Both the position numbers and the translations under genes were made by a program. A stretch of 43,881 nt of DNA. Origin: a virus. This document shows, one piece after another, positions 5,930 through 25,675 of this stretch (position 1 is its first letter; the number at the start of each line of letters is the position of its first letter). Where the stretch lies: IMG/VR virus record IMGVR_UViG_3300033149_002206; one strand, 5' to 3'. The notes under the pieces were generated by a model. That model worked only from the letters and a program-made list of their open reading frames with translations, ran no database searches and was not told the origin of the DNA.

Positions 5930-7501
5930 TTAACTCCATAAATTCAACGAATGAGTATAACGCTTAATAGGACGACCCCTCCTAATCGGGCTTGTTCTAT
6001 CCGCCGCTAATAAGAAATATAAAGTGGCGTGATAATAATGGTCTGCACCTAACTTAATCCACCTCGGACGAGTAAGACCTGTATCAGGGTTCTCAATAAT
6101 CGTCTTGGCAGTCTTGGTCATCTCCTTAGCATATTCGGAAATCTCGGCACTCCTGCGAGGTATCCTTATCTTATTAGAAATGAAGGTCGAATGAACCTTG
6201 TCCATCCACTCATTGCGATTACACTTAACTATTCCTTCCTTATTAAATTTGGGTCGGCCAGGCATCTGCTCGGAATACTGACATAAATATATCGTGTACG
6301 GCTCGGACTTCTGAAAATCAAGTACACCAAAATCGTGCGGACCAGAGTCAATTACACAAGAATGAACGTTCATCTTTAACGCTAAATCGTGTAAGGCATT
6401 CAAATCTGGTAAACGAGAGACATTTAATATGTCATAAGTATCCTTCGCCGTCCGTATACCAACAACGGCGTGTATTACCTTACCAATATCAACCCCCATA
6501 GCAGTCTCAGTAGAAGAAACCATCTGATTGGCATTCAAAGAACACCTCGATAAGACCGTAACCTCATCTAACTGATTTTCAGCCTCAACAGTGGCTACAC
6601 CAAGAGTACTACGCATAAATTCGGCCATCTGACGACCCTCTATATGCTCATACTGGTACATATATTCGTCCAAATCAGCATAAGGAGAAATTAACCCGTC
6701 TAACCAAAATCCAGCCTCCCTGCGGTCAGGATAATCAGCTACCCACTGACCATCCTTAACAAAAATCTCCTTACCACAATGTACACAACTACGACGCCAA
6801 CGACCGTCTATATACTTGATACTGTCAGGAAATGACTCTACCAAACAAGTATATTTGCCACAATGAGAACATTTAATTTGCCACTTACGCTGGTCACTAT
6901 TCTCGTACAATTGGTCGATACCATACCCAGGATACGTAGGACTACCAAAATTAACCTCAATACCAAAACGAGACCTCTTCAACCGCTGCTTGGACATATA
7001 TACCATATCCTCGTCCATCATATCTATCTCATCACGCATAATACAATCACAAGGAATAGAACGAAGATTGTCTGTGTCCTTTACACTCGAACCATATACC
7101 CGCTTCGGCTGCGCACCCACCATCACTATACTGCGACCATTAATCTCCTTGCACATCGTAGTATTCGTTGCACCCTTCTGTATTAACCACGGATTATACT
7201 GAAATATCGGGTCAAATAAGACCTTACTTAACTTCTCCACCGCAGTTACAGTGGGCATCATATACATCACATTCTGGTCATATAAACCATAATAACAAGA
7301 ATGAATGGCATCCAAATACTTCGTGGTAGTCATACATACCTGACTGCCCTTCTTACAGTTCATTACACGCTTGCCAGGCTTGACTAAATCCACCAAATAA
7401 GGCATACCCTTCAACGTAAAACGTATACCCGCACGTAACATCAACCTGTGATGATTAGCCCACGTCAAAGCATCAACTGCCATTAAACGCTCTATGTCCA
7501 T
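5930..7501 (-). CDS. terL: Terminase large subunit (GpA-like)
   Basis: 523 aa. Walker-like KKGSQVCMTT, PTVTAVEKLSKVLFDP, zinc ribbon CSHCGK...CVHCGK, and a C-terminal RNaseH-like nuclease with MGVDIGK. Confidence 0.85.
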   Translation of the reverse strand: MDIERLMAVDALTWANHHRLMLRAGIRFTLKGMPYLVDLVKPGKRVMNCKKGSQVCMTTTKYLDAIHSCYYGLYDQNVMYMMPTVTAVEKLSKVLFDPIFQYNPWLIQKGATNTTMCKEINGRSIVMVGAQPKRVYGSSVKDTDNLRSIPCDCIMRDEIDMMDEDMVYMSKQRLKRSRFGIEVNFGSPTYPGYGIDQLYENSDQRKWQIKCSHCGKYTCLVESFPDSIKYIDGRWRRSCVHCGKEIFVKDGQWVADYPDRREAGFWLDGLISPYADLDEYMYQYEHIEGRQMAEFMRSTLGVATVEAENQLDEVTVLSRCSLNANQMVSSTETAMGVDIGKVIHAVVGIRTAKDTYDILNVSRLPDLNALHDLALKMNVHSCVIDSGPHDFGVLDFQKSEPYTIYLCQYSEQMPGRPKFNKEGIVKCNRNEWMDKVHSTFISNKIRIPRRSAEISEYAKEMTKTAKTIIENPDTGLTRPRWIKLGADHYYHATLYFLLAADRTSPIRRGRPIKRYTHSLNLWS

Positions 7502-8099: not shown

Positions 8100-8615
8100 T
8101 CAAGCTCCAGCTAATTTCACATTATAGCTCCTGGCTATATCTGCCAGCGCCCTGCGCTCAGCTTCTGACATTTTAGGCGCAGAGATGTCTTTTGTCTTTA
8201 CAGTTTGAGTGTGAAGGCCGGTAATAGCGTTTTTCTCACGTATAGCGGCCGTTAAGGCCTGATTTGCCTGGACGTTGCCTTTATTAGCAAGCGGACGGAG
8301 ATTGTTAATCACCATATCGAGCTCGGCGATGGCCTTGTCATAGTTATAATCGGCTTTTTTACGTCTTAAGGCCTGTTTTTCGGCGATTTCGGCCATTATA
8401 TAAGGTTTGTTCAGGTTTTCATTCGCAATAACTCCAGCTGTTTTTTTAGAATACCCTGCCATAATTGCTGCTTGCAAGCCGTTATTATAGCCTTTACCTC
8501 CGACATCTGTATAATAATCTACAAATGCTTGTTGCTTTGCGGTTAGTTTATTTTTAGCAACATTTACCTTTTTGGTGTTGATATTTTGCAACGTATTGTC
8601 ATCTTGTTTGTTCAT
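8100..8615 (-). CDS. terS: Terminase small subunit (P27/Terminase_2-like)
   Basis: LTAKQQAFVDYY...NGLQAAIMAGYSKKTAGVIANENLNKPYI is the typical N-terminal HTH of this family. Confidence 0.75.
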   Translation of the reverse strand: MNKQDDNTLQNINTKKVNVAKNKLTAKQQAFVDYYTDVGGKGYNNGLQAAIMAGYSKKTAGVIANENLNKPYIMAEIAEKQALRRKKADYNYDKAIAELDMVINNLRPLANKGNVQANQALTAAIREKNAITGLHTQTVKTKDISAPKMSEAERRALADIARSYNVKLAGA

Positions 8616-11242: not shown

Positions 11243-11266
11243 AGGGGTGGAAACACCCCTTTTTTC
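11243..11266 (+). terminator. Rho-independent terminator
   Basis: AGGGGTG-GAAA-CACCCCT followed by TTTTT. Confidence 0.8.
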
Positions 11267-11399
11267 AGCATATTTTAAGGTTATCGGACAAAGCAGGAGC
11301 TTAACGCAGTGTGGAAAATTGAAGTTACAGACAAATCTACCAGAGAAGAAATCGCTCAAGCTATTAGAGTATTAAGAAAACTTATAAAAGGACGTAAAA

Positions 11400-11612: not shown

Positions 11613-12098
11613 TTTTTGGGGTATTTTTTCTTTTGGCGCTAATACCTTATTTTCACTTACTTTTCTTAACTCTTACTGTGTCAAATACTTACTGCTTCGC
11701 AATAGATTTGAAGATACCTGCCCCCTGTAAAAGGGGACAGAAATTGTCAAAAACTGCTTACGCAATGAGTTCTCGACACCGCCCACGTATCGCTCGGCAT
11801 AATGTGCAAGATACGTTCCACGCCGGCAGTAAGCTGGGGGTCTGCGCTCTTGGCTTACTGACTTAAAATCTGGCTATACACCAGTGTGCCTCTTCGGCTT
11901 TGGCTTGCTTCACGCCCGTGGAGCCAACGCCACATCGGAATCAGTTGTCTTTATTTGTAAATTAACCGCTTTCAAAAAATAAGCAAGCGTAAAATTATTT
12001 TTTTTAAGAAAGCTCGGCGGGCGCCCGCCAAGCCTATATAAGTTAGCTGCGTCCCTACACTCGGCATTGCACCAAGCAGACTGGCCAGCTCGGTATGA

Positions 12099-12398
12099 TT
12101 AGAACTTGTGGCGTATTTCGTTATCGCAGGGATTAGAGCCGTCTTTTTCGGCGCTGTCGTAAGATGTAACCTCTAAATTTTCCCGTTTGCGCCGAGAAAA
12201 TGATACGTGATGGCGTAGGTGCGCACGTTCAGACTCGACGGGAAATAATTCAGGATGGAATTTATGCCAGAACTTGAGCGATTCTATCACCGTTTCGGGC
12301 GTAGATTCTTGTTCTTCAGCAACCTGTCGAATTCCTTTTCTCTTCTGAACGACTTCACCGAAGACTGTCCAATCCCACTCCGTTGGGATTTTTTCCAT
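12099..12398 (-). CDS. Hypothetical small regulator-like protein, lone minus-strand gene within the plus arm
   Basis: 99 aa, SD AGGAG 9 nt upstream. It is divergent from the 12701 promoter across a repeat-rich AT region. A possible HTH lies around GIRQVAEEQESTPETVIESL. Confidence 0.55.
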   Translation of the reverse strand: MEKIPTEWDWTVFGEVVQKRKGIRQVAEEQESTPETVIESLKFWHKFHPELFPVESERAHLRHHVSFSRRKRENLEVTSYDSAEKDGSNPCDNEIRHKF

Positions 12399-12430
12399 AA
12401 AAAAGAACTCCTACTACTATAGGGGTATGT

Positions 12431-12486
12431 TTTAGCACAAAATTGCTAAAAATAGCAAAAAAATTATAAAAAATAGCAAAAAAATT
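12431..12486. repeat. Phased TAGCA boxes / A-tract direct repeats (iteron- or operator-like)
   Basis: Inverted TTTAGCA-N6-TGCTAAA (12431-12450). It is followed by two perfect 18-bp direct repeats AAAAATAGCAAAAAAATT at 12448-12465 and 12469-12486 (21-bp period). Confidence 0.8.
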
Positions 12487-12700
12487 GTAAAAAAGTCAAA
12501 AATTTTTTACATTTATGGATAAAAATGTATACACTTGTTGATAAGTGTTGATGTTTTTGTACGATTTGAGGTCGCAATTTGAGACCTCATTTTGGGCGGG
12601 ATTTACGTTTGCGAGACGTATGTAGTAAATTTTACTGCAAAGATGTGTAATGTGGACTCCAAATTTTTTTAAAAAAATGGTCAATTGCAAGATTTTCTTC

Positions 12701-12729
12701 TTGACAAATGATTGAAAATATGTTATGGT
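12701..12729 (+). promoter_or_regulatory. Strong sigma70-type promoter
   Basis: TTGACA (12701-12706), 17-nt spacer, TATGGT (12724-12729). Upstream lies the 16-bp AT palindrome ATTTTTTTAAAAAAAT (12663-12678), which is UP-element-like. Confidence 0.65.
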
Positions 12730-12735
12730 GAGTAA

Positions 12736-13075
12736 AAGTTAAGGAGAACACAATATGAGCCGTACAGGAAAACAGAATAAAAGACCCCAGAGGACAGGAA
12801 AGCCCTTTCAAAAATCCTGTACGGCGACCTCTGGGGTTCTTGTTGCAATCATCAAACTCTCCTCCTCAATCGGGCAGGTCTCTCCACACTTTTGTATTCA
12901 AGACAGGACTGGACTTTGGTCTCCCCCAATAGCCTGCCCGAGGGCAACAGCCGCCAGGCGGTCTGGCGGACAACATATAGGGATGGCTGGCAAAAAATCT
13001 ATTTTTCAAATTACCGCCAGCCACGAAAAACGAAAGGGGGTCGATGGCGATATTTCGTCGGCCCCCTATTTTGAG
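12736..13075 (+). ncRNA. Candidate structured RNA (~340 nt), unknown class; alternatively a highly structured mRNA of ORF 12755..13108
   Basis: It has its own promoter and terminator and sampled 60-nt stretches are 53-65% G+C in an AT-rich region. Perfect helices: 12759-12769/12815-12825 (11 bp), 12784-12793/12828-12837 (10 bp), 12870-12878/12933-12941 (9 bp), 12951-12957/12963-12969 (7 bp), 12984-12991/13016-13023 (8 bp). Confidence 0.4.
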
Positions 13076-13108
13076 AAAGCGGAGCTTAACAAAGTATGGA
13101 AAACATAA
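12755..13108 (+). CDS. Hypothetical basic 117-aa protein (coding status doubtful)
   Basis: Good SD AAGGAG 8 nt from the ATG, and the frame stays open through the terminator. However, the composition is atypical (R/S/G/P/C-rich) and the DNA is dominated by long inverted repeats. Confidence 0.35.
   Translation: MSRTGKQNKRPQRTGKPFQKSCTATSGVLVAIIKLSSSIGQVSPHFCIQDRTGLWSPPIACPRATAARRSGGQHIGMAGKKSIFQITASHEKRKGVDGDISSAPYFEKAELNKVWKT
13035..13073 (+). terminator. Rho-independent terminator
   Basis: 12-bp stem 13035-13046/13056-13067 (two G-U pairs), 9-nt loop, then ATTTTG. Confidence 0.65.
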
Positions 13109-13371
13109 AACTTACAATTATTGGTGTAATTATTATTGTGGCTTTTGGTTTTGCCACGAAGCAAGTCTGCTCTTATTTTGGTCAGATTGAGAGTCTTCAG
13201 GCACAGTTAGAGGAAGCCCGAAACTACGTACCGACCATTGAGGAAATCCAGCAAAGATTGTGTAATGCTGGTTATGTTGTAAAGGTAGATGGTATCTGGG
13301 GTAATGAGACTAAAGCAGCCCTGAACCGCTACCATTGTGATAAATATGCAGAGAAATATTTTGGAGAGTAA
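13096..13371 (+). CDS. Membrane-anchored peptidoglycan-binding (PG_binding_1) protein without a catalytic domain
   Basis: N-terminal TM segment LTIIGVIIIVAFGFA. IQQRLCNAGYVVKVDGIWGNETKAALNRY matches the PG_binding_1 consensus. Confidence 0.6.
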   Translation: MENIKLTIIGVIIIVAFGFATKQVCSYFGQIESLQAQLEEARNYVPTIEEIQQRLCNAGYVVKVDGIWGNETKAALNRYHCDKYAEKYFGE

Positions 13372-13374
13372 AAA

Positions 13375-13737
13375 ATGAAACTTATCAGATATAAAGATAA
13401 CGGCGAAGACTGTTACGAAGAAGTGATGGAGGCCTACGAGGTGAAGTGTCAGAACTGCGGGATTATTGTCGATAGAGACGATGCTATCAGGTGTGATTTT
13501 TGCAACAAGGATTATTGTCCACAATGCTTTTATGATGAGGACTCCAAACAGCGGCACGGAGAGAATGTTTTGAATACAGGCTATAACGTTTGTTTTTCCT
13601 GTGCCGAAGAAAATATGGTACAGCTCGTTATATTAGAATTATGGGCTGCAAACGTATATGAAAAGTACAGCCCTAATAAAGACAGAGAATTGGCTGAGGC
13701 ATTTGACAGGGCAAGAAAGGTAGTAAAAAATGGCTAA
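13375..13737 (+). CDS. Cys-rich zinc-finger protein
   Basis: CQNCG...CDFCNKDYCPQC...CFSC. Confidence 0.55.
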   Translation: MKLIRYKDNGEDCYEEVMEAYEVKCQNCGIIVDRDDAIRCDFCNKDYCPQCFYDEDSKQRHGENVLNTGYNVCFSCAEENMVQLVILELWAANVYEKYSPNKDRELAEAFDRARKVVKNG

Positions 13738-13888
13738 AAAAAAGACTCCAACGACCATTCCTGATATGATAGCACTGAACGATAAACATATTAGCGAATT
13801 AATGGTTATAATAAAAAAACTGGCTGAAATAGTCAAAAGACACGATGATAGCATCAAAAAACTTTTAAAGGTGAAAAATGATAATTGA
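13730..13888 (+). CDS. Hypothetical 52-aa protein
   Basis: MAKKKTPTTIPDMIALNDKHISELMVIIKKLAEIVKRHDDSIKKLLKVKNDN. It fills an otherwise uncovered gap. Below the track cutoff. Confidence 0.35.
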   Translation: MAKKKTPTTIPDMIALNDKHISELMVIIKKLAEIVKRHDDSIKKLLKVKNDN

Positions 13889-14111
13889 AACACATAATGT
13901 AGACCGTAATCGTTCCGCCCCAGTCAAACTAATTCAACTGGGAATAGGAATAAACGAAAAAAATGCAATAGTTTTTTTTGTTATTGATAGCTTTGGTATT
14001 GAGGGCAGAATGATGTTAAAGCCAGACCATCTTGACGAGCTTATCTTAATGATAGAGGGGGCTAAAAGAGACTTCAAAGCATTAAAGGATGACGAAAATG
14101 ATAAAGTGTAA
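13878..14111 (+). CDS. Hypothetical protein
   Basis: 77 aa, SD AAAGGTGA. Confidence 0.5.
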   Translation: MIIETHNVDRNRSAPVKLIQLGIGINEKNAIVFFVIDSFGIEGRMMLKPDHLDELILMIEGAKRDFKALKDDENDKV

Positions 14112-14307
14112 AAGAACGTACGGTGCTTATTTATTGGGTCTTATCTTTGAGCGGTGTCGGAACGATTTCAGGATGTTATCGTCCAACTGGACGGCAAGGG
14201 GTGCAGAAGCGGTCATTGAGGACAGATGGGATGGTCAGAGGTATAAATTAACTATCGAGGGACTAAATGAAAGCGAACAAGAAAACACAAGCACACATAG
14301 TATATAA
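14098..14307 (+). CDS. Hypothetical protein
   Basis: 69 aa from ATG 14098 (SD AAGGATG). Overlaps the next gene by 41 nt. Confidence 0.4.
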   Translation: MIKCKRTYGAYLLGLIFERCRNDFRMLSSNWTARGAEAVIEDRWDGQRYKLTIEGLNESEQENTSTHSI

Positions 14308-14944
14308 GCTGTCAGACGGGACAAGAGTGCCTGGTGTAACGACTGTCGTTAATGTTTTAAATAAGCCTGCCCTAATAAACTGGGCAAACAAAATGGGTTT
14401 AGCTGGTATTGAGGTCGGTCGGTACGTAGATAATCTCGCTGATATAGGTACGTTAGCGCACGCTATGGTTGTAGCACACCTTAAAGATGAGACAGTTGAT
14501 ACAGACGATTATTCCAAGAACCAGATTGAACAGGCCGAATGGGCGTGTAAATCTTTCTTCGATTGGATGAAGAGCCACGAGATTGACTTATTATGGGCAG
14601 AACGACCTTTAGTCAGCGAAAACCGTAATTTCGGCGGCACGCCTGATATTTATGCTATTGTCGATGGCGTGAGAGAGTTGATAGATTTAAAGAGCGGTAG
14701 TGGTATTTATGATGAGCATAAAATTCAGGTAGCAGGCGGATACAGTCTGTTGTTAGAGGAACACGAACTATCTTTTGAGAAGGTCAGGATACTCAATATT
14801 CCCCGCACTAATAACGAGAACTGGGCGGAGGTGATTATTGCCAATACAGAATTATTTCAGGATATATTTTTAGCCTGTCTGGACGTTTATAACCTTCAGA
14901 AGAAACTTAAAGGTGAAGTAGTCTATCCGAGGAAACATAAATGA
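14267..14944 (+). CDS. PD-(D/E)XK family nuclease (recombination exonuclease candidate)
   Basis: GTPDIYAIV...ELIDLKSG (D...E-x-K) followed by KIQVAGGY (a QxxxY-like motif). Located upstream of erf. Confidence 0.6.
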   Translation: MKANKKTQAHIVYKLSDGTRVPGVTTVVNVLNKPALINWANKMGLAGIEVGRYVDNLADIGTLAHAMVVAHLKDETVDTDDYSKNQIEQAEWACKSFFDWMKSHEIDLLWAERPLVSENRNFGGTPDIYAIVDGVRELIDLKSGSGIYDEHKIQVAGGYSLLLEEHELSFEKVRILNIPRTNNENWAEVIIANTELFQDIFLACLDVYNLQKKLKGEVVYPRKHK

Positions 14945-15276
14945 AAGTTAGAAAACAAACAAAACTCTGGACAACACAAGATGGCAACAGGATAAGGCTT
15001 TGCGATATGTCAGATGAACATCTTTTGAATACTATTAAATTTTTACAGCGCAAAGCTAAAGAATTATATAAAGATGAATTGGCTGCAGGTTATAGTATAC
15101 TTAGCTCCTTAGGTGGTGAAGCTGCTATTGACCACTGTGAAGGAACTCTGCAGATGATTGAAGAGGAAGGCGCTGACTATTATTTACCTGACATTTATTA
15201 CAATATGCTTGATGAGAAAGAAAGGCGTGGTTTGATTGAAAATGAGAAGGGGAAGAAAATGAGGAAACATAAATAA
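14941..15276 (+). CDS. Hypothetical protein
   Basis: 111 aa, ATGA-coupled to the upstream gene. Confidence 0.55.
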   Translation: MKVRKQTKLWTTQDGNRIRLCDMSDEHLLNTIKFLQRKAKELYKDELAAGYSILSSLGGEAAIDHCEGTLQMIEEEGADYYLPDIYYNMLDEKERRGLIENEKGKKMRKHK

Positions 15277-15497
15277 TGGATATATGCCCTATATGTAAAA
15301 GAGAATTTCCTGATTGCGCTGAATCTGAATGCTGTTTAGATTTAGTTGTAGACGCCTTTATAGATGGTAAATATATAACAATGTGCCCCTTGTGTTATGC
15401 CAAGGATTTCAAACGAATACACGGAGTAAACTGGCAACCTGTTGGCGAAATGGCAAGTATGATGTATGAAGAAGCGAAAAGGTTATATTCCGAATGA
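15276..15497 (+). CDS. Zinc-ribbon small protein
   Basis: CPICK...CPLC. Confidence 0.5.
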   Translation: MDICPICKREFPDCAESECCLDLVVDAFIDGKYITMCPLCYAKDFKRIHGVNWQPVGEMASMMYEEAKRLYSE

Positions 15498-15576
15498 AAG
15501 CAATAATATATTTACAAATTCTCGGATTTTTCTGGTTTTTGTGGGTGGCTATTGGTACAATATTGAGGATGAGAAA

Positions 15577-15765
15577 ATGACCGAAGAAATGTATGAAATG
15601 TTAATAGTAGAACGAGAGAGGCTTATTTTAAGGGCAAGTCTAATCAATCAATGTAGAAAGGAAGAAAATGGAAAAAGAAACAATCGCAGAGAAGCTGTTT
15701 TACCTTCAGCAACACTTGAACGTACCGAAAAACCAGTACAACGAGTTTGGCAAATACAAGTATAG
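15577..15765 (+). CDS. Hypothetical small protein (uncertain)
   Basis: ATG 15577 with SD GAGGATG, but it overlaps the erf start by about 98 nt in another frame. Confidence 0.25.
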   Translation: MTEEMYEMLIVERERLILRASLINQCRKEENGKRNNRREAVLPSATLERTEKPVQRVWQIQV

Positions 15766-16309
15766 GTCGTTAGAGGATATAGTAGAAGCGCTCAAGCCGT
15801 TACTGAAAGAAAAGAAATGCACCCTGAAGATGTCTGACGAAATCGTCCAGTTTGACGGCCGTTATTATGTCAAGGCGACAGTATCACTTCTTGATGGCGA
15901 TGAGGAAATTAAAACTTCTGCCTATGCCCGTGAGCCTGAAAACCGCAAGGGTATGGACGAGAGCCAGATTACAGGTGCAGCGTCCAGTTATGCCCGCAAG
16001 TACGCCCTTAACGGACTATTAGCAATAGATGATACTCAAGACGCTGACGCCCTGCCACCAGCGAAAGAAGAGAAAAAGGTCGAGAAGCCCAAACCTGCCT
16101 CCAAACCCGTAGACACCGATAAATGGCTCGACCAGCAGTTTTTCAATATAACTTCTGATATGAAACTTGATGAAGGCTTTAAGTGGTCGATAGAGAAATT
16201 CAGGAAGGTTGTAGAGGCAGCGAAGCCGAAGACTCGTGGCGACGCCAAGAAGATTATCGAGAAGGTTAAACTAATGCCAGCAGTGATACAGGAGGCCATT
16301 GATGCCTAA
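15668..16309 (+). CDS. erf: Erf-family single-strand annealing protein
   Basis: FGKYKYRSLEDIVEALKPLL ... ITGAASSYARKYALNGLLAIDD are hallmark ERF motifs. Confidence 0.75.
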   Translation: MEKETIAEKLFYLQQHLNVPKNQYNEFGKYKYRSLEDIVEALKPLLKEKKCTLKMSDEIVQFDGRYYVKATVSLLDGDEEIKTSAYAREPENRKGMDESQITGAASSYARKYALNGLLAIDDTQDADALPPAKEEKKVEKPKPASKPVDTDKWLDQQFFNITSDMKLDEGFKWSIEKFRKVVEAAKPKTRGDAKKIIEKVKLMPAVIQEAIDA

Positions 16310-16712
16310 ATACTTTTTAGCCAAAAGAAACGAACCGCAGCCGTTAGCACAGTGGCCTGCTATCTATCACGAGATAAATAAGAGACCCGCATCTTATATC
16401 TTAATCCTCAATTCTGATGAGTATATTACCGATAGACAGAGGCGATGGTATCGAGGAGTCTGTTTGAAAGGTCTTTCCGATTGGAACGGCGATACCGTGG
16501 ATGTGTGGGATTATAGACTAAAGACAGAATGCGGAGCGGAGATTTTCAAGATGCTGAAATTTGAATATAACGGACAGGTTTATTATCGGCCAGAGAGTAT
16601 TACTGGCAAGACCAAGAACCAAATGACTCAATTCATAGAAAATATTTTAAGTTGGGCAATAAGCAAGGAATGGCCTGTATACCCGCCCGACCCTGATTTA
16701 AGGAGAATGTAA
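16299..16712 (+). CDS. ninB: NinB/Orf-like recombination mediator (tentative)
   Basis: 137 aa. DRQRRWYRGVCL...TGKTKNQMTQFIENILSWA parallels lambda NinB (LDQNRKLWACL...STSRMRVGEFAELLELIQAF). Located between erf and ssb. Confidence 0.35.
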   Translation: MMPKYFLAKRNEPQPLAQWPAIYHEINKRPASYILILNSDEYITDRQRRWYRGVCLKGLSDWNGDTVDVWDYRLKTECGAEIFKMLKFEYNGQVYYRPESITGKTKNQMTQFIENILSWAISKEWPVYPPDPDLRRM

Positions 16713-17167
16713 TGAATTATAACAAAATTTTACTAATGGGAAACTTAACCCGAAACCCTGAACTATCGTATCTGCCCAACCAGACGGCAGTAGTATCATT
16801 TGGCATAGCCGTCAATCGCAAATACAAGGATAAGGAAGAGACTTTATTTATCGACTGTACAGCCTTTGGTAATCAGGCAGAGAATATCAATAAATATATG
16901 CAGAAGGGAAATCCTATCTTTATCGAAGGACGTTTGACGAAAGACCAGTGGACACAGGATGATGGTGTGAAACGAGAAAAATATAAAGTAATAGTTGAGA
17001 GGTTTCAGTTTTTGGGAGTAGCCCAACCTGCACAGCGGAGCTTAACGATAGTATCGCCTCAAACAGAACCTAAAAACGACAGTTTCTCACCCCAAAACGA
17101 CAGTTTCTCGCCCAAAAACGACAGCCCACAACAATCGGTTTTTGAAGATGAGGATATACCATTCTGA
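16712..17167 (+). CDS. ssb: Single-stranded DNA-binding protein
   Basis: OB-fold N-terminus (ILLMGNLTRNPELSYLPNQTAVVSFGIAVNR...FIDCTAFGNQAENI...IEGRL) and an acidic tail DEDIPF. Confidence 0.9.
   Translation: MNYNKILLMGNLTRNPELSYLPNQTAVVSFGIAVNRKYKDKEETLFIDCTAFGNQAENINKYMQKGNPIFIEGRLTKDQWTQDDGVKREKYKVIVERFQFLGVAQPAQRSLTIVSPQTEPKNDSFSPQNDSFSPKNDSPQQSVFEDEDIPF
17072..17127 (+). repeat. 21-bp tandem repeat (about 2.6 units) in the SSB linker
   Basis: AACGACAGTTTCTC at 17075 and 17096, and AACGACAG at 17117. It encodes (K/Q)NDSFSP repeats. Confidence 0.85.
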
Positions 17168-17194
17168 AATAACGGACTGAACCCACAAGAAAGG
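17165..17194 (+). repeat. 30-bp intergenic direct repeat, copy 1
   Basis: TGAAATAACGGACTGAACCCACAAGAAAGG is identical to 17483-17512. It spans the stop codon of the upstream gene and the SD region of the next gene. Confidence 0.9.
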
Positions 17195-17202
17195 GCAACG
17201 CT

Positions 17203-17490
17203 ATGAAATCTAATGCGGATATTGCAAATTTCAGGCGGCACGAAAAGAGCTGCGTGAATTGCAGATATTACCGAGTAACTGGAGATTACACCAGTAGCTG
17301 CCTTCTTTTGGGCAGGACGTTAAGCATAACAGGAATGTATTATTATGCTGATGGCTGCCGTGTCTGTGATTTTTGGAAGAAACGGCCGTCAACGTGGAAC
17401 TGCTTCGTAAAAGCAAATCCTTTTTGGCACGACCCATACATTTCAAGGGAGAGCCAATTAAAAATAAGGAAACGGCACGGATTGAAATAA
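17203..17490 (+). CDS. Cys-rich small protein
   Basis: 95 aa; CVNCRYYR...C...CRVCDFW. Confidence 0.5.
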   Translation: MKSNADIANFRRHEKSCVNCRYYRVTGDYTSSCLLLGRTLSITGMYYYADGCRVCDFWKKRPSTWNCFVKANPFWHDPYISRESQLKIRKRHGLK

Positions 17491-17512
17491 CGGACTGAAC
17501 CCACAAGAAAGG
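17483..17512 (+). repeat. 30-bp intergenic direct repeat, copy 2
   Basis: Identical to 17165-17194. Confidence 0.9.
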
Positions 17513-17526
17513 AAAGGAAAAAGGAA

Positions 17527-17745
17527 ATGAGATTGGAAATGAAATATTTTGTAGTAAAACCACATCCCAAAACAGCAGACGATATTTTTGCAAGAGCATC
17601 ACAGCACGCAATGCTGGCTTATGCGGATTGCATTGAAGCACAAGAGCCAGAATTTGCAGCAGAAATTCGAGCGTGGGCAGAAAGGGAAAGCCTGAATCAG
17701 TATAAAGCTGGCAATAAAGGAAAAACAAATGGAACGAAAAAGTGA
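17527..17745 (+). CDS. Hypothetical protein
   Basis: 72 aa (alternative start at 17539). Confidence 0.5.
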   Translation: MRLEMKYFVVKPHPKTADDIFARASQHAMLAYADCIEAQEPEFAAEIRAWAERESLNQYKAGNKGKTNGTKK

Positions 17746-17938
17746 AACCCTGGGTATGACAAAAAGAGACATAATGAAATGTATTCGAGATGAAATGGAT
17801 TATTGGGATACTGTTGAAACAGAAGCTATGAGTATGCTGGAAGAATTAATGGACTTAAAGATGCGTATTTCGCACACAGAAACTGTTACAAAAGAACTAT
17901 TTGATGAATTTTGCCATCTTGTCCCAGCGAGAAATTAA
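17729..17938 (+). CDS. Hypothetical protein
   Basis: 69 aa, acidic and helical. Confidence 0.5.
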   Translation: MERKSETLGMTKRDIMKCIRDEMDYWDTVETEAMSMLEELMDLKMRISHTETVTKELFDEFCHLVPARN

Positions 17939-18105
17939 TTGGATTAACCCTTCAGGCAAGGAGGCTTATTATCCACGATATAGATTACATTTTATTCAAA
18001 ATCAAATTTGCAACACTCCCCCCGAAGTACAGGCCTAAAAGCGAATGCTTAACGAAGTGTGTTTTAGGAAGCAGGAAGTGCTCTAAGAAAGAAGGAGTCA
18101 AGAAA

Positions 18106-18750
18106 ATGATTACTAAATTACTTAAAGAAATAGATAAAATGCGGTTGATGGATGTAATGCCCGATTGGTTGGATGTGTACAAGGTTGTGAGCAATAAAAT
18201 TGGGGGAGGTTATGAAGCATTAAATCAATACTTCGTTTATGATGACAATGGGGGAATTGTCAAAAACGCACATCCCAAGAAAATTCTTGAATGCGCAAAC
18301 GGGGAGTATACAGCAGGGTTTCATTCATTCACAAGACCAGAAGCAGCCTTGAAGTATCTTTTTATGGTGCTTTCTGATATGCCAGAAAAAGCCGTTTTTT
18401 GGGCAAGAGAATTTATCTCTTATCTTGACAGCCCCTATGCGAAAGTCCCCGCACCGAATCTTGGGCGTACCTATATGGAATTCCCCATACCGATAAAGTG
18501 CATTATTAAAAAAGAGTGGATAGAAGCTATCGGTAGGGATGTGAGCGGAGAAATAGTCGTGGTAACTCAACAATTATTTGTTCCAAGATGTGGGGAATAT
18601 GAGCCTGCCCACAAAAAAATAATAGAAATGTCGCCGTTAAAAATTACAGAACCCGTAGATATTAACATAAAAGTAGAAGAAAAAGATTTAGCGTCCATAA
18701 GCACATCTATGCCAATTTCGATTCAGGAAGAAATAGAGGCGTTAGTATGA
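18106..18750 (+). CDS. Hypothetical protein
   Basis: 214 aa from ATG 18106 (SD GAAGGAG). The upstream part of track ORF 17911..18750 looks non-coding. Confidence 0.55.
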   Translation: MITKLLKEIDKMRLMDVMPDWLDVYKVVSNKIGGGYEALNQYFVYDDNGGIVKNAHPKKILECANGEYTAGFHSFTRPEAALKYLFMVLSDMPEKAVFWAREFISYLDSPYAKVPAPNLGRTYMEFPIPIKCIIKKEWIEAIGRDVSGEIVVVTQQLFVPRCGEYEPAHKKIIEMSPLKITEPVDINIKVEEKDLASISTSMPISIQEEIEALV

Positions 18751-19067
18751 GAGCAATGCAAATAACGGACGGCCAGAAATTTGCACTTATTAAACTAATG
18801 GGACGATTTGCCAAGAACCGTAACGCCCGACTATGGATGTTGTCTAAACTGCTTAATAAAACCGTGGAATCAACCAGCGAATTATCTGTAGACGACTGGC
18901 GCAAGATACGGGATATGGCCTATCCTGACTGGTCTGATGATAATTGGTATCCGTGTGAGGAATTTTTTGAATTGGGCTATAAATTATATCGTGAATACGA
19001 AGAAGATGTGGTGGGGCAGATGTCTTTATTTGGAAAGAAGGATGAGACGGAAGGCAAAAGTATGTAA
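18747..19067 (+). CDS. Hypothetical protein (Mu gp16/GemA, DUF1018-like, tentative)
   Basis: 106 aa; ITDGQKFALIKLM...SELSVDDWRKI pattern. Confidence 0.4.
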   Translation: MRAMQITDGQKFALIKLMGRFAKNRNARLWMLSKLLNKTVESTSELSVDDWRKIRDMAYPDWSDDNWYPCEEFFELGYKLYREYEEDVVGQMSLFGKKDETEGKSM

Positions 19068-19359
19068 AGTCTGCGGTAAGCCTGCGTTTCGGGGATGTTT
19101 GTGCCGAAAGCACCTGAACGAGTATATGATTAAGAAGCAGGCTGAATACAAGAAACGAACGCACTGGCACAGATTTGATGATTACGAAAACGAATTTGCC
19201 AACGACTGGATAGACACAGAAAAACAGGCCACGGCCGACAGGATACATTACGAGATAGAGATATTAAAAATGTCGGGCTATGATATAAGAGCCAAAGAGG
19301 GTAACCCTAAATACATAAGCGCAGCAGTAGCGGACGAGATACTGAATGGCACTATTTGA
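19042..19359 (+). CDS. Zinc-finger protein
   Basis: 105 aa from ATG 19042 (SD GGAAAGAAGG); CKVCGKPAFRGCLCRKH. Confidence 0.5.
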   Translation: MRRKAKVCKVCGKPAFRGCLCRKHLNEYMIKKQAEYKKRTHWHRFDDYENEFANDWIDTEKQATADRIHYEIEILKMSGYDIRAKEGNPKYISAAVADEILNGTI

Positions 19360-19367
19360 GGTTAAAA

Positions 19368-19793
19368 ATGAACGAATGCAAAAAACATCCTAATCTAATA
19401 GTGAAGTGGTTCAAGCCGTATCTGGAATGCCCAGTCTGTAAATTAGAGGCGGAAGTTGAAAGGCTTATGGCCAGTAAGAGGTTTAAGCCCCCGACCTTAC
19501 AAGAGGTTAGAGACTATATTGCCCAGAAGGATTATCCCGTTGACCCAGACCAATTCTTTAACTTCTACGAGGCCAAAGGCTGGATGATTGGCAAGAACAA
19601 GATGAAGAACTGGCACGCTGCGGTACGAACGTGGCTCTCGAAAAACAAGACGAAACTATATCCAATTACTGGTAAGATATGCAGTAAAGAGGGCTGTGGT
19701 CTGCCTGCGGTCTATAAAGATACTACTGGCAGTTACGACCATTATTACTGTGCCAAGCATTTACCAGAAAAGGTAAGGAAATTGTATCAATGA
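19368..19793 (+). CDS. Hypothetical protein with zinc-ribbon ends and a W-rich central motif
   Basis: FFNFYEAKGWMIGKNKMKNWHAAVRTW. This motif recurs in phage replication-organiser N-termini. Confidence 0.45.
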   Translation: MNECKKHPNLIVKWFKPYLECPVCKLEAEVERLMASKRFKPPTLQEVRDYIAQKDYPVDPDQFFNFYEAKGWMIGKNKMKNWHAAVRTWLSKNKTKLYPITGKICSKEGCGLPAVYKDTTGSYDHYYCAKHLPEKVRKLYQ

Positions 19794-19836
19794 ATTACTA
19801 ATGGCAGGAATGCTATTAAGAAAGGCGGTGAACGAG

Positions 19837-20049
19837 ATGGGGAAAAAAAGAAAGATGAAAAAACTACCTTATCCGTTTTGCGAGACCACAGAAAATTTAA
19901 TCAAGGTGGCAAACAGATTAAATGCAGAATTATCTTTTCCTGATTTGCCATTGCAACGCCAAAGAGAGTGTCAAGTGCTGTTGCGTGATATAAAAGTTGC
20001 CCTAAATTCCAGAATGCTTTTGAAGGGAAATAATAATGACGTGGCTTGA
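19837..20049 (+). CDS. Hypothetical protein (cassette gene 1, copy A)
   Basis: Start at ATG 19837 follows the box AAGAAAGGCGGTGAA. It is a distant paralog of 20765..21022. Confidence 0.45.
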   Translation: MGKKRKMKKLPYPFCETTENLIKVANRLNAELSFPDLPLQRQRECQVLLRDIKVALNSRMLLKGNNNDVA

Positions 20050-20184
20050 AGATAAATTGCATTTGTCAGAAATTCAAAAGCAAGTGCTTATGGACAATCT
20101 ACAAGAATTGCAGCTTGCTGCTGATAAGGCAGTAGAAGAAAACAGAAGCCCATCTGAAGCTATAATTGCAAAAAGTAAGGAAAT
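20036..20184 (+). repeat. 149-bp direct repeat, copy A (3 mismatches vs 21024..21172)
   Basis: Base-by-base comparison at offset 988. Mismatches at 20072, 20073 and 20179. Confidence 0.9.
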
Positions 20185-20200
20185 CTTATGTATAGAATAG
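20036..20200 (+). CDS. Hypothetical 54-aa protein (cassette gene 2, copy A)
   Basis: MTWLEDKLHLSEIQKQVLMDNLQELQLAADKAVEENRSPSEAIIAKSKEILCIE. Near-identical to 21024..21200. Below the track cutoff. Confidence 0.5.
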   Translation: MTWLEDKLHLSEIQKQVLMDNLQELQLAADKAVEENRSPSEAIIAKSKEILCIE

Positions 20201-20222
20201 AAAAATAAGAAAGGTGAGTAAA

Positions 20223-20432
20223 ATGGAAGATTTGCGTTTCAAAGATGGCCAAAAATTAAGGGCAATAATATGGTCTCATAAGGTAATTCGTGCCGAGGAT
20301 GGTGTTGAAATTCAAATTGTAATGGAGAATGGGCAAACGGCTTGTTGCGTGCCTTGGGCGTTAGTAACTTATCCAGATGGCTCGCAAGAAAAATGGAATT
20401 TGGCAAATAGCGATGTAGGAGTATTATTATGA
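20223..20432 (+). CDS. Hypothetical protein
   Basis: 69 aa from ATG 20223, SD AAAGGTGA. Confidence 0.5.
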   Translation: MEDLRFKDGQKLRAIIWSHKVIRAEDGVEIQIVMENGQTACCVPWALVTYPDGSQEKWNLANSDVGVLL

Positions 20433-20464
20433 GAAAAAATTTAAGACAAGAAAGGCGGTGAATA

Positions 20465-20668
20465 ATGGAAATTGTAATAAAATATCACCCACTATCAAAA
20501 GAAAAAGAATTTCCTTCATTAGTTGATATATTTAGAGCAGATAATCTATCTGAACCATATTTTACTGAACATATAGACTCCATCGGTGATTTGCTTGACC
20601 AGCGTTTTTATGAATTGCTTAAAATAACTGGGGAGGTTAAGTTAAGGTTAGAAATTATAGATGAATAG
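20465..20668 (+). CDS. Hypothetical protein
   Basis: 67 aa, preceded by AAGAAAGGCGGTGAATAATG. Confidence 0.5.
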   Translation: MEIVIKYHPLSKEKEFPSLVDIFRADNLSEPYFTEHIDSIGDLLDQRFYELLKITGEVKLRLEIIDE

Positions 20669-20764
20669 AACTGGCGGCGGCGTATAGAGATGAGCGCTAT
20701 ACATAATCAAAAGCCCTCGAAAGTAAGCCTATCCGCCAATTCTTTGAGAAAGGTAGTGAATATT

Positions 20765-21022
20765 ATGGAAAAGTATATAAATGCCAACAATGGTCGTTGT
20801 AAGCCGAATGATAGGCATCAGGTTATGACCCCCGAAAAATTTACAGATATTGACATAAGTTTAACTATTATTGGTTTGCAAAGCAAAATCGACGAATATC
20901 GGGTAATGATTGCCGAGCATAGCATTGATAATAATGAAAATGTTATAAGGGCTTGCGAAAACGCAATAGTGTCTTGTCAATGCTTACTTGAAGAGGCACA
21001 AGCCTTGAAAGGCGGTGAATGA
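20765..21022 (+). CDS. Hypothetical protein (cassette gene 1, copy B)
   Basis: ATG 20765 follows GAGAAAGGTAGTGAA. The track ORF starts at 20690. Confidence 0.45.
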   Translation: MEKYINANNGRCKPNDRHQVMTPEKFTDIDISLTIIGLQSKIDEYRVMIAEHSIDNNENVIRACENAIVSCQCLLEEAQALKGGE

Positions 21023-21023
21023 A

Positions 21024-21172
21024 ATGACGTGGCTTGAAGATAAATTGCATTTGTCAGAAGCTCAAAAGCAAGTGCTTATGGACAATCTACAAGAATTGCA
21101 GCTTGCTGCTGATAAGGCAGTAGAAGAAAACAGAAGCCCATCTGAAGCTATAATTGCAAAAAGTAAAGAAAT
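21024..21172 (+). repeat. 149-bp direct repeat, copy B
   Basis: See 20036..20184. Confidence 0.9.
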
Positions 21173-21200
21173 TCTGTCTGAAAAAGGAAAAGAAGAATGA
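21024..21200 (+). CDS. Hypothetical 58-aa protein (cassette gene 2, copy B)
   Basis: MTWLEDKLHLSEAQKQVLMDNLQELQLAADKAVEENRSPSEAIIAKSKEILSEKGKEE. Confidence 0.55.
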   Translation: MTWLEDKLHLSEAQKQVLMDNLQELQLAADKAVEENRSPSEAIIAKSKEILSEKGKEE

Positions 21201-21562
21201 GTACAGGAAATTCAAAGCTTGAACCAAAAACGAAAGTAGTTTGGATAATAAAAAACTGTTTAGAGTATTCTATGAGGTCTCATCAAAAATGGGTTGATTA
21301 TCTCAAGGGAGATATTGAACCAGAAGTAAGAAAGAATCAAGAAGAACTGGTAGGTAATGTTGCATTTCACGAGAATTGCATACAAAGATATGAAATGGCA
21401 TTACAGGCTTTAGGGCAACTCCAGGCCGAAAACGAGAGACTAAAAGCCGAGAAAAAAGAACTTGGCAAAATGCACAATACGTATGTCAAAAGGGTTATCA
21501 AAATGATGAAAGAGCAAGGTTTTGAGATAAATTATGAAGGTGGTGCAACCGTTTTTGATTAG
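21197..21562 (+). CDS. Hypothetical protein with C-terminal coiled coil
   Basis: 121 aa. Confidence 0.55.
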   Translation: MSTGNSKLEPKTKVVWIIKNCLEYSMRSHQKWVDYLKGDIEPEVRKNQEELVGNVAFHENCIQRYEMALQALGQLQAENERLKAEKKELGKMHNTYVKRVIKMMKEQGFEINYEGGATVFD

Positions 21563-21588
21563 GGCAAAGTTCTGAAAGGTAATGGATA

Positions 21589-21801
21589 ATGAAATCTTGT
21601 AGAGATTGTATTTATTGGAGAGAGCAAAGTGGGAGCTGCCACGTTTTGTGCCCTAAACGAATGGATTTTTCTTTTAGTTGGGGCTTGCCTGTTTGTGAGT
21701 TATATAAAGAGGGTGAGCCAGAGTCGAGGAAGGTTAATCAGTTTTTAGTGTGGTCAGGTGAAAAACCAGAAGGCTGGCCGGAACTTGAAGATGCCAAATA
21801 A
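21589..21801 (+). CDS. Cys-rich small protein
   Basis: CRDCIYWREQSGSCHVLC...C; similar Cys pattern to 17203..17490. Confidence 0.5.
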   Translation: MKSCRDCIYWREQSGSCHVLCPKRMDFSFSWGLPVCELYKEGEPESRKVNQFLVWSGEKPEGWPELEDAK

Positions 21802-21819
21802 ATAGAAAGGCGGTGAATA

Positions 21820-21984
21820 ATGAAGATTTTTTTAATAATTCTGGTTTTTGTTTTGGCTATATTTTTTAGTTGGTTATTACCAGATGCGATGTTAGGCGAA
21901 ATGAGCGAGGAATTAAGAGAGCGTTGGGATAAAAACTTCAAGGAGAGAAACGCAAAAAGCAAAACCAAGAAAGGCGGTAAATAA
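21820..21984 (+). CDS. 54-aa single-TM protein
   Basis: MKIFLIILVFVLAIFFSWLL..., preceded by AGAAAGGCGGTGAATAATG. Below the track cutoff. Confidence 0.45.
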   Translation: MKIFLIILVFVLAIFFSWLLPDAMLGEMSEELRERWDKNFKERNAKSKTKKGGK

Positions 21985-22229
21985 TGAATCGTTATTTTAC
22001 AGATGGTAGGCCACGCAAACATCCTGAAGGCAAATGGTGTAAGTGGGAAGATGTACAAAAACTCGAGGCTGAGAATAAAAAACTACGAGAAATCATAAAT
22101 CACGCAATTGGCAGCCTGCACGCTTTATTGGTAAATTTGGACATCCAAAACCAAAAAGATATTATTGAATTGGAGAGTATTAAAGAACTTTTACAAGGAG
22201 TCAAGGATGGCGACCAGAAAAACGACTAA
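21984..22229 (+). CDS. Hypothetical protein
   Basis: 81 aa, preceded by AAGAAAGGCGGTAAATAATG. Confidence 0.5.
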   Translation: MNRYFTDGRPRKHPEGKWCKWEDVQKLEAENKKLREIINHAIGSLHALLVNLDIQNQKDIIELESIKELLQGVKDGDQKND

Positions 22230-22653
22230 AAAGGCCAAGAAGCCAGGCATCAAGAAGCTTAAAAAGAAGCTCTGGAAAATTGTATCCGAGTATATAAGGC
22301 TTCGGGACGCATTAGAGACCACGGGAACGAGGGAATATTTGCGATGTTGTACGTGTGGCAAAGTTTATCCCGCCTTTGGTAAAGGTTGTGCGCAGGCAGG
22401 GCATTTTGTTCCAGGCAGGAGTAATGCTGTTCTCTTTGACGAAAGATGTATTCACGGACAATGTTATAATTGTAATATTAACCTGAAAGGCGCCCATATC
22501 CCGTATAGAAAATTTATGATAAAAAAATATGGACTTGCAATTACAGAAGAAATAGAGGATAATTATTATAAAACAGTAAAATACACCACGAGCGATTTGG
22601 AAGATATGATAGAAGAATATAAGATGAAACTGAAGGAATTGAAAGGAGAATGA
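22207..22653 (+). CDS. ninG: NinG/Rap-like recombination endonuclease
   Basis: Basic N-terminus, LWKIVSEYIRLRD, CCTCGK...AQAGHFVPGR...QCYNCN: the NinG family pattern. Confidence 0.65.
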   Translation: MATRKTTKKAKKPGIKKLKKKLWKIVSEYIRLRDALETTGTREYLRCCTCGKVYPAFGKGCAQAGHFVPGRSNAVLFDERCIHGQCYNCNINLKGAHIPYRKFMIKKYGLAITEEIEDNYYKTVKYTTSDLEDMIEEYKMKLKELKGE

Positions 22654-23216
22654 TGCAGTTAATAAATGATAATATATTGCGATGTATGGTAATTCTTTAT
22701 GTACTTCTCGTGGTAGTGTCAAGCGGCTGTCAGCAGGAACAGAGGGTAGATACATCGACGATGAGTGATGAGGCCAAGACGAAGGTTATTGAGACCAGAG
22801 AGGTAATCAGGAAAGTCTATGAGACTAACTGGGCAGCTACGGTATTTATCTTTATGGTGGCAGGTAGTATTATTGCTGTCGTAGCCAATCCTAAAATGGC
22901 AGTGGCTTGGGGAGGTATTGCAGCGGGAATAATAGGATTGGGGTTGGTCTTACTTCAGCAGAGTGCAGCGAAATCATTATCAGAAATTCCGTGGTGGGTT
23001 TATGCTATGGGATTTGGGGGTGGAGCGATATGTTTTGGGTACGGAGCTTATCGGCTCTTGAGATATAGGATAGGATTTAAGGAAATAGTAAGGGGTGGCG
23101 AAATGCTCAAGAAGGATTGTGCTGAAGTGGTAGCGCCATTTAAGCGCACCCAGAGAGTTAATCAATCTCCCCAAACCAAAAAGTTAGTTAAGGAAACTAT
23201 TAAGGAGCTATTATGA
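22650..23216 (+). CDS. Putative lipoprotein/polytopic membrane protein
   Basis: Signal peptide ending VVSSGC (lipobox-like), then three hydrophobic segments in the 70-140 aa region. Confidence 0.5.
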   Translation: MMQLINDNILRCMVILYVLLVVVSSGCQQEQRVDTSTMSDEAKTKVIETREVIRKVYETNWAATVFIFMVAGSIIAVVANPKMAVAWGGIAAGIIGLGLVLLQQSAAKSLSEIPWWVYAMGFGGGAICFGYGAYRLLRYRIGFKEIVRGGEMLKKDCAEVVAPFKRTQRVNQSPQTKKLVKETIKELL

Positions 23217-23386
23217 AAGCCTACGCACTCAAAAAAGGACGGAAATATTGGAGTGGCGAAGAATGGGGGGACGAGTATGTATCTTTAACTGGTGCTCATC
23301 TATTTAAGAACAAGAAAGATGCAGAATTTTTTACTAAGATAGGCGACAAGGTTGTCAAAGTAGAAATTCACGAGGTGAAAGAATGA
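23213..23386 (+). CDS. Hypothetical 57-aa protein
   Basis: SD AAGGAG. ATGA-coupled to both neighbouring genes. Below the track cutoff. Confidence 0.45.
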   Translation: MKAYALKKGRKYWSGEEWGDEYVSLTGAHLFKNKKDAEFFTKIGDKVVKVEIHEVKE

Positions 23387-23643
23387 TAGGCTGGATAGTA
23401 CTATTTTTCTGGATTGGCGTTGGGATTATAGACTTGATATTAGTCGTTTTACACGAAGAGACTATAAGCCAGCGGGTTCAGGCTCTAATGCCGACGTGGT
23501 TAGATATGATTATCTTTATCTCTGGCTGTATACTTATGTTTCATTTGTGGTCTGATGAAATGGTTACGGTAGATAAGATAATTACGTTAGTGGTATGGTC
23601 GCATTTGCTTTGGCCCCAAAGGGAAAGATACAAAACGGATTGA
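23383..23643 (+). CDS. Three-TM small membrane protein (holin-like topology)
   Basis: 86 aa with three hydrophobic helices. Confidence 0.45.
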   Translation: MIGWIVLFFWIGVGIIDLILVVLHEETISQRVQALMPTWLDMIIFISGCILMFHLWSDEMVTVDKIITLVVWSHLLWPQRERYKTD

Positions 23644-23710
23644 CTTTTATTAACGGCTCTGACCCCGCACGAACGGATGCGTTGCGGGGCAGGGCAATTA
23701 GGAGCGAATA

Positions 23711-23860
23711 ATGATTTATGTACTTGCCTGTTTTTGGATGGCTATCGTACAAATTCCGTTTCTCTTTTTTGGCCCCTGGTGGATAAGGGCGATAACTATT
23801 ATATCGATAGGAATCTGTACATTTTTAGGCGGATTGATTTTATACGAAAACCGCAGATAG
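23711..23860 (+). CDS. 49-aa two-TM membrane protein
   Basis: MIYVLACFWMAIVQIPFLFFGPWWIRAITIISIGICTFLGGLILYENRR; SD AGGAGCG. Preferred over track ORF 23677..23895. Confidence 0.4.
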   Translation: MIYVLACFWMAIVQIPFLFFGPWWIRAITIISIGICTFLGGLILYENRR

Positions 23861-23879
23861 CGACAATAAGGAGCGTAAA

Positions 23880-24309: not shown

Positions 24310-24310
24310 A

Positions 24311-25650: not shown

Positions 25651-25675
25651 AGGTTTAAGTACGAAAGGATTCGTT

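Follow-up and report, generated by a model that had tools for sequence, protein, structure and literature searches.

A structured leader at the head of a phage early operon and its possible role as a translation-coupled attenuator

What kind of element separates the early promoter of an uncultivated phage from its first clearly recognizable early gene? The question is raised by positions 12701-13108 of IMG/VR record IMGVR_UViG_3300033149_002206, a whole phage contig of 43,881 bp derived from a metagenome, which was analysed over its full length and is called the window below. A first-pass annotation, made without database searches, had described this segment as a self-contained promoter-to-terminator unit for a GC-rich, heavily paired RNA with mutually exclusive helices. 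We favour another reading, tentatively and at a probability of about 0.45: the element may be the structured leader of the early (recombination/replication) operon, containing a leaky attenuator, hairpin T, at which read-through depends on translation of an open reading frame (ORF) spanning the leader. All features of the leader described below lie on the plus strand.

Position of the element in the early operon

The sigma-70-type early promoter (TTGACA-17-TATGGT, with a TG extension) is found at 12701-12729, exactly where it had been placed, and gives a predicted transcription start at about 12736. Only two strict-score promoter matches are present on the plus strand of the window, and this is the only one of the two that is not buried in a minus-strand gene; same-strand early genes span about 13 kb downstream of it. 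The 16-bp perfect A/T palindrome that had been noticed upstream (ATTTTTTTAAAAAAAT, 12663-12678) is present as well, 22 bp upstream of the -35 hexamer, and may serve as UP element or operator. The base composition of the transcribed segment had been overstated: per 60 nt, its G+C content ranges from 0.43 to 0.65, with a mean of 0.496, and not from 53 to 65%. Nevertheless, the leader is indeed richer than its immediate A/T-rich flanks (0.27-0.28), the value for the whole genome being 0.412.

A terminator-like hairpin, referred to as T (13035-13072), is located near the end of the segment and consists of a 12-13 bp stem (13035-13067) followed by the tail UAUUUUG. The first clearly real early gene (13096-13371) starts only 28 nt 3′ of this hairpin; it codes for a protein of 91 amino acids in which a hydrophobic segment at the N-terminus is combined with a PG_binding_1 domain, and both its codon score (0.251 bit/codon) and the domain match leave its coding nature clear. 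When the intervening positions 13068-13095 were scanned for promoters, no promoter-like site was found between hairpin T and gene 13096. Since this gene has no promoter of its own, hairpin T must be read through; the element thus belongs to the early operon, as its 5′ leader, and is not the self-contained unit that had been proposed. In this respect the arrangement is the one expected of an attenuator leader, which separates the structural genes from their promoter and has none behind its hairpin.

The same geometry bears on a second explanation, in which the element would be a stand-alone, trans-acting non-coding RNA of about 335 nt, released at T and serving as an immunity, decoy or anti-defence RNA. 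The promoter, the strong and well-defined fold and the final hairpin with its U-run would suit such an RNA, as would the lack of a match to any known family and the weak coding signal of the ORF. But T cannot be efficient, since the gene behind it lacks a separate promoter. Furthermore, the element is not conserved in 84 related loci, and a search of the rest of the phage for complementary targets of at least 14 nt found none, the longest complementarity (13 nt) being at chance level and due to shared ribosome-binding motifs. There is no adjacent partner protein either: in agreement with what had been reported earlier, domain searches of the ORFs neighbouring the element returned no reverse transcriptase, as a retron msr/msd would require, and no recombinase, TnpB/IscB or guide-RNA nuclease. 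On the whole, we find a released trans-acting RNA unlikely.

Structure of the leader RNA

The five helices listed in the first-pass annotation are all exact. Helices A (12759-12769/12815-12825), B (12784-12793/12828-12837) and C (12870-12878/12933-12941) have 11, 10 and 9 bp, respectively; hairpin D (CCGCCAG/CUGGCGG, 12951-12957/12963-12969) is made of 7 bp with a 5-nt loop, and hairpin E (UGGCUGGC/GCCAGCCA, 12984-12991/13016-13023) of 8 bp with a 24-nt A/U-rich loop. Such a collection is not expected by chance. Three perfect stems of at least 9 bp are observed for 0.10 expected, a number that none of 2000 dinucleotide shuffles reached, and for stems of at least 8 bp the figures are four observed and 0.40 expected, with 2 of 2000 shuffles reaching the observed number. 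The minimum free energy (MFE) of the plus strand is -119.7 kcal/mol, which corresponds to a z-score of -4.26, compared to -2.56 for the minus strand. The paired plus-strand region is non-random and strand-specific, and its perfect stems argue that the RNA structure is selected whether or not the ORF is coding. In a fold scan of the whole genome with windows of 240 nt, the two windows covering the element ranked about 6th and 11th out of 728, so that it is an outlier without being at the top.

At equilibrium, the predicted pair probability (p) is above 0.96 for helices B, C, D and E and for hairpin T. Two closed domains can be distinguished. Domain 1 (12742-12863) is closed by pairing between the Shine-Dalgarno sequence (SD) of the leader ORF and a CU-rich anti-SD run (12742-47/12858-63); it contains helix B and a further helix, B2 (ACAGGA/UCCUGU, 12794-12799/12815-12820), which stacks on B, with p at 0.96-0.97 for both. 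Domain 2 (12870-12941) is a three-way junction closed by helix C (p 0.98), and is followed by hairpins D (p 0.965) and E (p 0.976). Sequestration of the SD by the CU-rich run had been suggested, and it is indeed predicted in the ensemble with a p of 0.62-0.88; in addition, the start codon (as AUGA) is predicted to pair with UCAU at 12849-52 (p 0.8-0.92).

The proposed competition between folds fared less well. Helices A and B are topologically exclusive, as had been claimed, but they do not really compete at equilibrium, where helix A has a p of 0.013 only; a fold in which it is forced reaches -31.8 kcal/mol, against -38.1 for B together with ACAGGA/UCCUGU, which is thus ahead by 6.3 kcal/mol. 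On the other hand, helix A is the MFE fold of a transcript ending at 12830, and it is therefore predicted to be a transient co-transcriptional intermediate, displaced once the B′ strand emerges. An A/B pseudoknot is excluded by geometry, because the 2-nt linker cannot span an 11-bp stem, so that the description of A and B as alternative folds was correct on this point. The duplicated motifs CCGCCAG (12951 and 13014) and ACAGGAAA (12764 and 12794) are both there. However, the idea that the two CCGCCAG copies compete for CTGGCGG had to be abandoned, since pairing with the second copy has a p of 0.000.

Could these inverted repeats operate at the level of DNA, as part of a replication origin or a recombination site, or even be a fortuitous cluster? 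The A/T-rich region next to the element does contain palindromes and a 21-bp repeat in three phased copies, and related phages carry an integrase at the equivalent place. But the strand asymmetry is not what a DNA element would call for: the plus strand is the more stable of the two, and G.U pairs are found on the plus strand only. Moreover, neither an integrase nor an integrase remnant was found in the window, and chance clustering is excluded by the shuffles. We hold this explanation to be highly improbable.

The leader ORF and attenuation at hairpin T

The ORF mentioned above (12755-13108, 117 codons; ORF117) is open across the whole leader, as had been reported, and its stop codon overlaps the start of the next gene (ATGGAAAACATAA). 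It begins with an AUG at 12755-12757, preceded at a spacing of 8 nt by the SD AAGGAG (12741-12746), and the surrounding 13-nt ribosome-binding context, AGTTAAGGAGAAC, is identical to that of the structural gene located at 354-1178 on the minus strand. No stop codon interrupts its frame over the leader, and three are found in each of the two other frames. The codon log-odds of ORF117 is -0.018 bit/codon, to be compared with 0.185 ± 0.069 for 36 reference genes of the phage and -0.175 ± 0.108 for 40 spurious ORFs. This places it below all the reference genes and above 95% of the spurious ORFs, near a few small early genes (0.001-0.06).

One interpretation of these features is that ORF117 is simply the gene of an ORFan early protein, small, very basic and probably disordered (e.g. 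a lambda-N-like or host-takeover factor), the RNA structure being incidental or serving to tune translation of the ORF itself or the stability of its mRNA. The strong SD at ideal spacing, the phage-typical ribosome-binding context and the overlap of its stop with the next start all speak for this, and so do the facts that metagenome gene callers do call ORF117 as a gene and that an open run of this length is reached in only 3.2% of shuffles. The predicted product has a pI of 10.5, with 7 K/R among its first 20 residues. Phage early genes are frequently ORFans, and in lambda the N gene is the first one behind an early promoter and has a terminator after it, so that ORF117, as the first gene behind the early promoter and followed by a terminator-like hairpin, would be in the position of N. 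The likeness to the lambda pL-nutL-N-tL1 region, and to HK022 put, extends to the place of the leader ahead of exonuclease and annealing protein genes, and likeness to N itself includes the small, very basic product. It stops there: the hairpin is inside the ORF and not after it, similarity to N is lacking (Pfam and PHROGs, E up to 10), and neither boxB nor a boxA-like motif (GCTCTTTA) is present in or near the leader.

Other data also speak against an ordinary protein gene. The codon score is lower than that of 36 out of 36 reference genes and belongs to the upper tail of the spurious ORFs, and G+C is flat over the three codon positions (0.48/0.53/0.48). ORF117 retrieved only itself from 5.8 billion protein clusters (word-indexed search), from 1.84 billion representatives (full phmmer) and from viral, genome and metagenome contigs scanned with back-translated patterns, and it had no match in Pfam or PHROGs with E up to 10. 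AlphaFold2 produced a model devoid of helices with a predicted local distance difference test (pLDDT) score of 38, which is in itself uninformative; for the neighbouring 99-aa protein, single-sequence prediction gave 74-84 in the helical N-terminus. Finally, three perfect stems of 9-11 bp are unexpected under coding selection alone. An ordinary ORFan protein thus appears rather unlikely to us. The first-pass annotation had already cast doubt on the coding nature of the ORF, and with regard to the weak codon score and the missing homologs this doubt was justified. In contrast, its other argument, that the frame runs through the terminator, does not hold, because an ORF extending through the hairpin is the very layout expected if translation gates the terminator, and is thus no evidence against translation.

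We therefore return to the reading in which the ORF and the hairpin work together. Hairpin T has a predicted stability of -23.5 kcal/mol and a p of 0.97, with two G.U pairs possible on the plus strand alone. No antiterminator pairing with T is predicted in the fold ensemble, and T would be, at most, a leaky or regulated attenuator. Transcripts from the promoter at 12701-12729 would begin at about 12736, and the nascent RNA would fold into the two closed domains and hairpins D and E before hairpin T, with its short U-tract, acts as a leaky or regulated attenuator ahead of gene 13096. Until the polymerase has transcribed the anti-SD (12858-63), about 120 nt further on, the SD and AUG would remain accessible. 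A ribosome loaded during this interval could trail the polymerase through the 117-codon frame and block formation of hairpin T; it would mask T, which is situated 40 nt before the stop codon, and then, where the stop and start codons overlap, move on to gene 13096. If no ribosome loads, the SD and AUG would become sequestered, T would form, and an RNA of about 335 nt would be released. Read-through at T is possibly coupled to translation of the leader ORF; termination at T, translation of the ORF and the gating of one by the other are what we infer from the layout. It is known that intrinsic terminators are suppressed by a closely following ribosome (PMC4824070, PMC5021804).

The closest parallel is offered by the pyrBI-type attenuators: there, as here, a promoter-proximal leader precedes structural genes, the leader ORF extends through the terminator hairpin, and the predicted outcome hinges on a ribosome following the polymerase. 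The pyrBI leader of E. coli, in which an ORF of about 44 codons runs through the attenuator, is the classical example. The phage leader departs from this type in the length of its ORF (117 codons), in its five extra stable helices and in the sequestration of its SD and AUG, and it shows neither a U-rich pause region nor any obvious metabolite logic.

Homologs, related elements and genomic surroundings

No known RNA class could be recognized, in line with the initial impression. Covariance-model searches of the whole window with Rfam 15 gave no match at gathering thresholds, and relaxing the threshold to E up to 10 over 12400-13300 brought only two chance-level matches (21.7 and 12.4 bits, for cut-offs of 50 and 88). 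Hallmarks of tRNA or tmRNA had likewise been judged absent, and ARAGORN found no such gene over the window. Related loci were collected through homologs of the exonuclease family (31-68% identity), which gave 9 metagenome and 80 IMG/VR loci. Collecting homologs from related phage contigs with nhmmer and blastn had been put forward as a check on the element, but these programs, and tblastn, recovered it only in an identical contig of 2.7 kb (L001), which is the only other copy on record. Two covariance models, R1 for domain 1 and R2 for domain 2 with hairpins D and E, found no match in 1.13 Mb of related phage loci, and two structure-aware DNA patterns gave 0 matches in IMG/VR.

A single related locus, L010, resembles that of the window in its architecture. 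The link between the two is a protein of 99 amino acids with a three-helix, helix-turn-helix (HTH)-like N-terminus, encoded in the window on the minus strand (12099-12398) behind a promoter of its own (TTTACA-17-TATAAT, 12491-12463) and thus divergently from the leader. Its only homolog among the related loci is that of L010 (449-736, minus strand; 51% identity), and it is the only protein that links the two loci; further homolog searches revealed nothing beyond L010, and no Pfam or PHROG family was matched. Foldseek searches with this small family gave weak matches (E about 1), all of them to HTH DNA-binding domains (Lrp, DeoR, SpoIIID). In L010, an A/T-rich intergenic region is followed by a TTGACA-16-TATAAT promoter and then by a structured leader (1018-1279), with an A7T6 near-palindrome (985-999) located 18 bp upstream of the -35 hexamer. 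The 227-nt leader has 41% G+C, for 25% upstream, and contains an 11-bp stem (1073-83/1145-55) followed by UUUUG, a 10-bp stem (1170-79/1254-63) and an ORF of 58 codons that spans it (1088-1264). Its z-score is -3.8 to -4.5, two perfect stems of at least 10 bp are reached in 2 of 2000 shuffles only, and its SD is fully paired. Among the leaders of 92 consensus promoters from 84 related loci, those of the window and of L010 rank 2nd and 3rd for structure, most of the others having z-scores between -2 and +1.5.

It may be speculated that the two leaders, though divergent in sequence, represent a new class of large regulatory RNAs in phages, tied to the shared small HTH regulator. They would govern the onset of the early programme by sensing whether transcription and translation can still be coupled in the infected cell, or else would modify the polymerase in the manner of put or conAn2, or would also be released as trans-acting RNAs. 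We consider this quite unlikely. As matters stand, the element is a singleton, i.e. one phage and one architecturally similar leader, and not a new RNA family.

Several points weigh against the translation-gated attenuator itself. The two leaders cannot be aligned, the ORF of the L010 leader is not significant alone (it is matched in 10% of shuffles), and what could be called a class is based on architecture in two loci. Homologs that could lend the structure or the ORF the backing of covariation or dN/dS were not found in the collections searched. Sequestration of the SD and AUG could equally well be compatible with an ORF that is never translated. The last point concerns hairpin T, which had been presented as an intrinsic terminator: the hairpin and its U-run are real, but a consensus terminator scan did not list it, and its four consecutive U make a weaker tract than the six U of the canonical terminator at 11243, so that T may be a mere stabilising stem-loop.

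If the attenuator reading is nevertheless correct, then a long translation-gated attenuator follows the main early promoter in this uncultivated phage lineage, and phages would have one more means to time early expression or to tie it to the state of the host. It would also explain why gene callers label such leaders as ORFan 'hypothetical proteins'.

The leader immediately follows the early promoter of an operon of about 13 kb carried by a mobile element. Such a location also brings to mind RNAs that act in cis to render the polymerase resistant to termination, and the leader might modify the polymerase for the early operon in the same way. Two models come into consideration. HK022 put is an element of about 70 nt made of two stem-loops, and as such it is unlike the leader. 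The conAn2 RNAs of Gram-positive conjugative plasmids are 260-600 nt long and poorly conserved in sequence; they contain an essential GC-rich segment and stem-loops, and their G+C content is above that of their surroundings (PMC8191782). They are transcribed together with the conAn1 gene, which precedes them, and override terminators located further downstream (PMC8191782). The leader is comparable to them as a large, sequence-divergent structured RNA, with G+C above its surroundings, at the start of a long mobile-element operon, and its 340 nt are within their size range (PMC8191782). The differences are that the only partner candidate is the divergently encoded HTH-like protein and that the sole terminator-like element is inside the leader. 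No ConAn1-like gene precedes the leader in its transcript, since the RNA begins at the promoter, although no similarity search against ConAn1 was made. Besides, an antitermination element would have little to act upon, as no convincing intrinsic terminator other than T is predicted on the plus strand in 13100-26400. Processive antitermination is, in our opinion, very unlikely.

Two more comparisons can be made. With phage 'morons' the element shares a promoter of its own, a deviant base composition and a terminal hairpin; however, the ORF encloses the hairpin and no second promoter serves the operon downstream, which means that this is not an insulated insertion. The immunity RNAs P4 CI and P1 C4 are similarly located in an early-operon leader and have duplicated short motifs able to pair with one complement, but no Rfam C4 match was obtained here and the alternative pairings are of negligible predicted probability.

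The remainder of the phage is laid out as follows. Packaging and structural modules are on the minus strand, with the genes for the small (8100-8615) and large (5930-7501) terminase subunits and a long tail gene (28866-33740). The early module, on the plus strand, includes genes for a Cas4-like PD-(D/E)XK exonuclease (14267), Erf (15668), SSB (16712), NinG (22165) and a DnaQ-like exonuclease (25676). A PG_binding_1 protein is an unusual component at the head of such a recombination/replication operon. The closest phage proteins in GenBank are very distant (at most 27% identity for the exonuclease and 26% for TerL), and at the DNA level the contig matched neither GenBank phages nor PLSDB plasmids, whether in near or in distant search modes. 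Phages with the Cas4-like exonuclease are extremely mosaic and, beyond the exonuclease itself, have almost none of the neighbouring window genes in common; many of them use TTGACA-17-TATAAT promoters with a TG extension.

The control region between the divergent promoters has features of its own. Positions 12361-12600, which are A/T-rich, give a fold z-score of -8.3, the most extreme among the 240-nt windows of the genome. An A-tract repeat of 21 bp is present at 12439-12501 in three tandem copies (AAAATTGCTAAAAATAGCAAA and variants), which probably represent phased bent DNA or operators, an origin being a further possibility. Further downstream, at 12567-12589 on the plus strand, there is a hairpin (TGAGGTC...GACCTCA) followed by TTTTGGG, upstream of which two weak plus-strand promoter-like sites are found (12506-12535 and 12538-12565); this hairpin could represent a tiny transcript, or an insulator. 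Canonical plus-strand terminators, with 7-bp stems followed by 5-6 T, are present at 12371-12396 and 11243-11266. The former sits within the 5′ end of the minus-strand 99-aa gene and would shield the control region from plus-strand transcription arriving from upstream.

Downstream of the 99-aa gene, about 490 bp (11613-12098) contain no ORF longer than 77 amino acids and have 46-50% G+C; this segment is structured on both strands (z about -3.7) and includes a GC palindrome at 12012-12033. Related phages have a tyrosine integrase at the equivalent position. The possibility that an attP site or a decayed integrase is located there was considered and rejected, as the segment has no similarity to the integrases of the relatives.

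Lastly, ribosome-binding contexts recur within the phage. The context AGTTAAGGAGAAC of the leader ORF (12737-12749) is found again at 1184-1196 on the minus strand, and a second one, GGAGCTTAAC, at 13078-13090, 17034-17046 and 11295-11305. All of the longest 'repeats' that the element has in other parts of the genome are explained by these recurrences.

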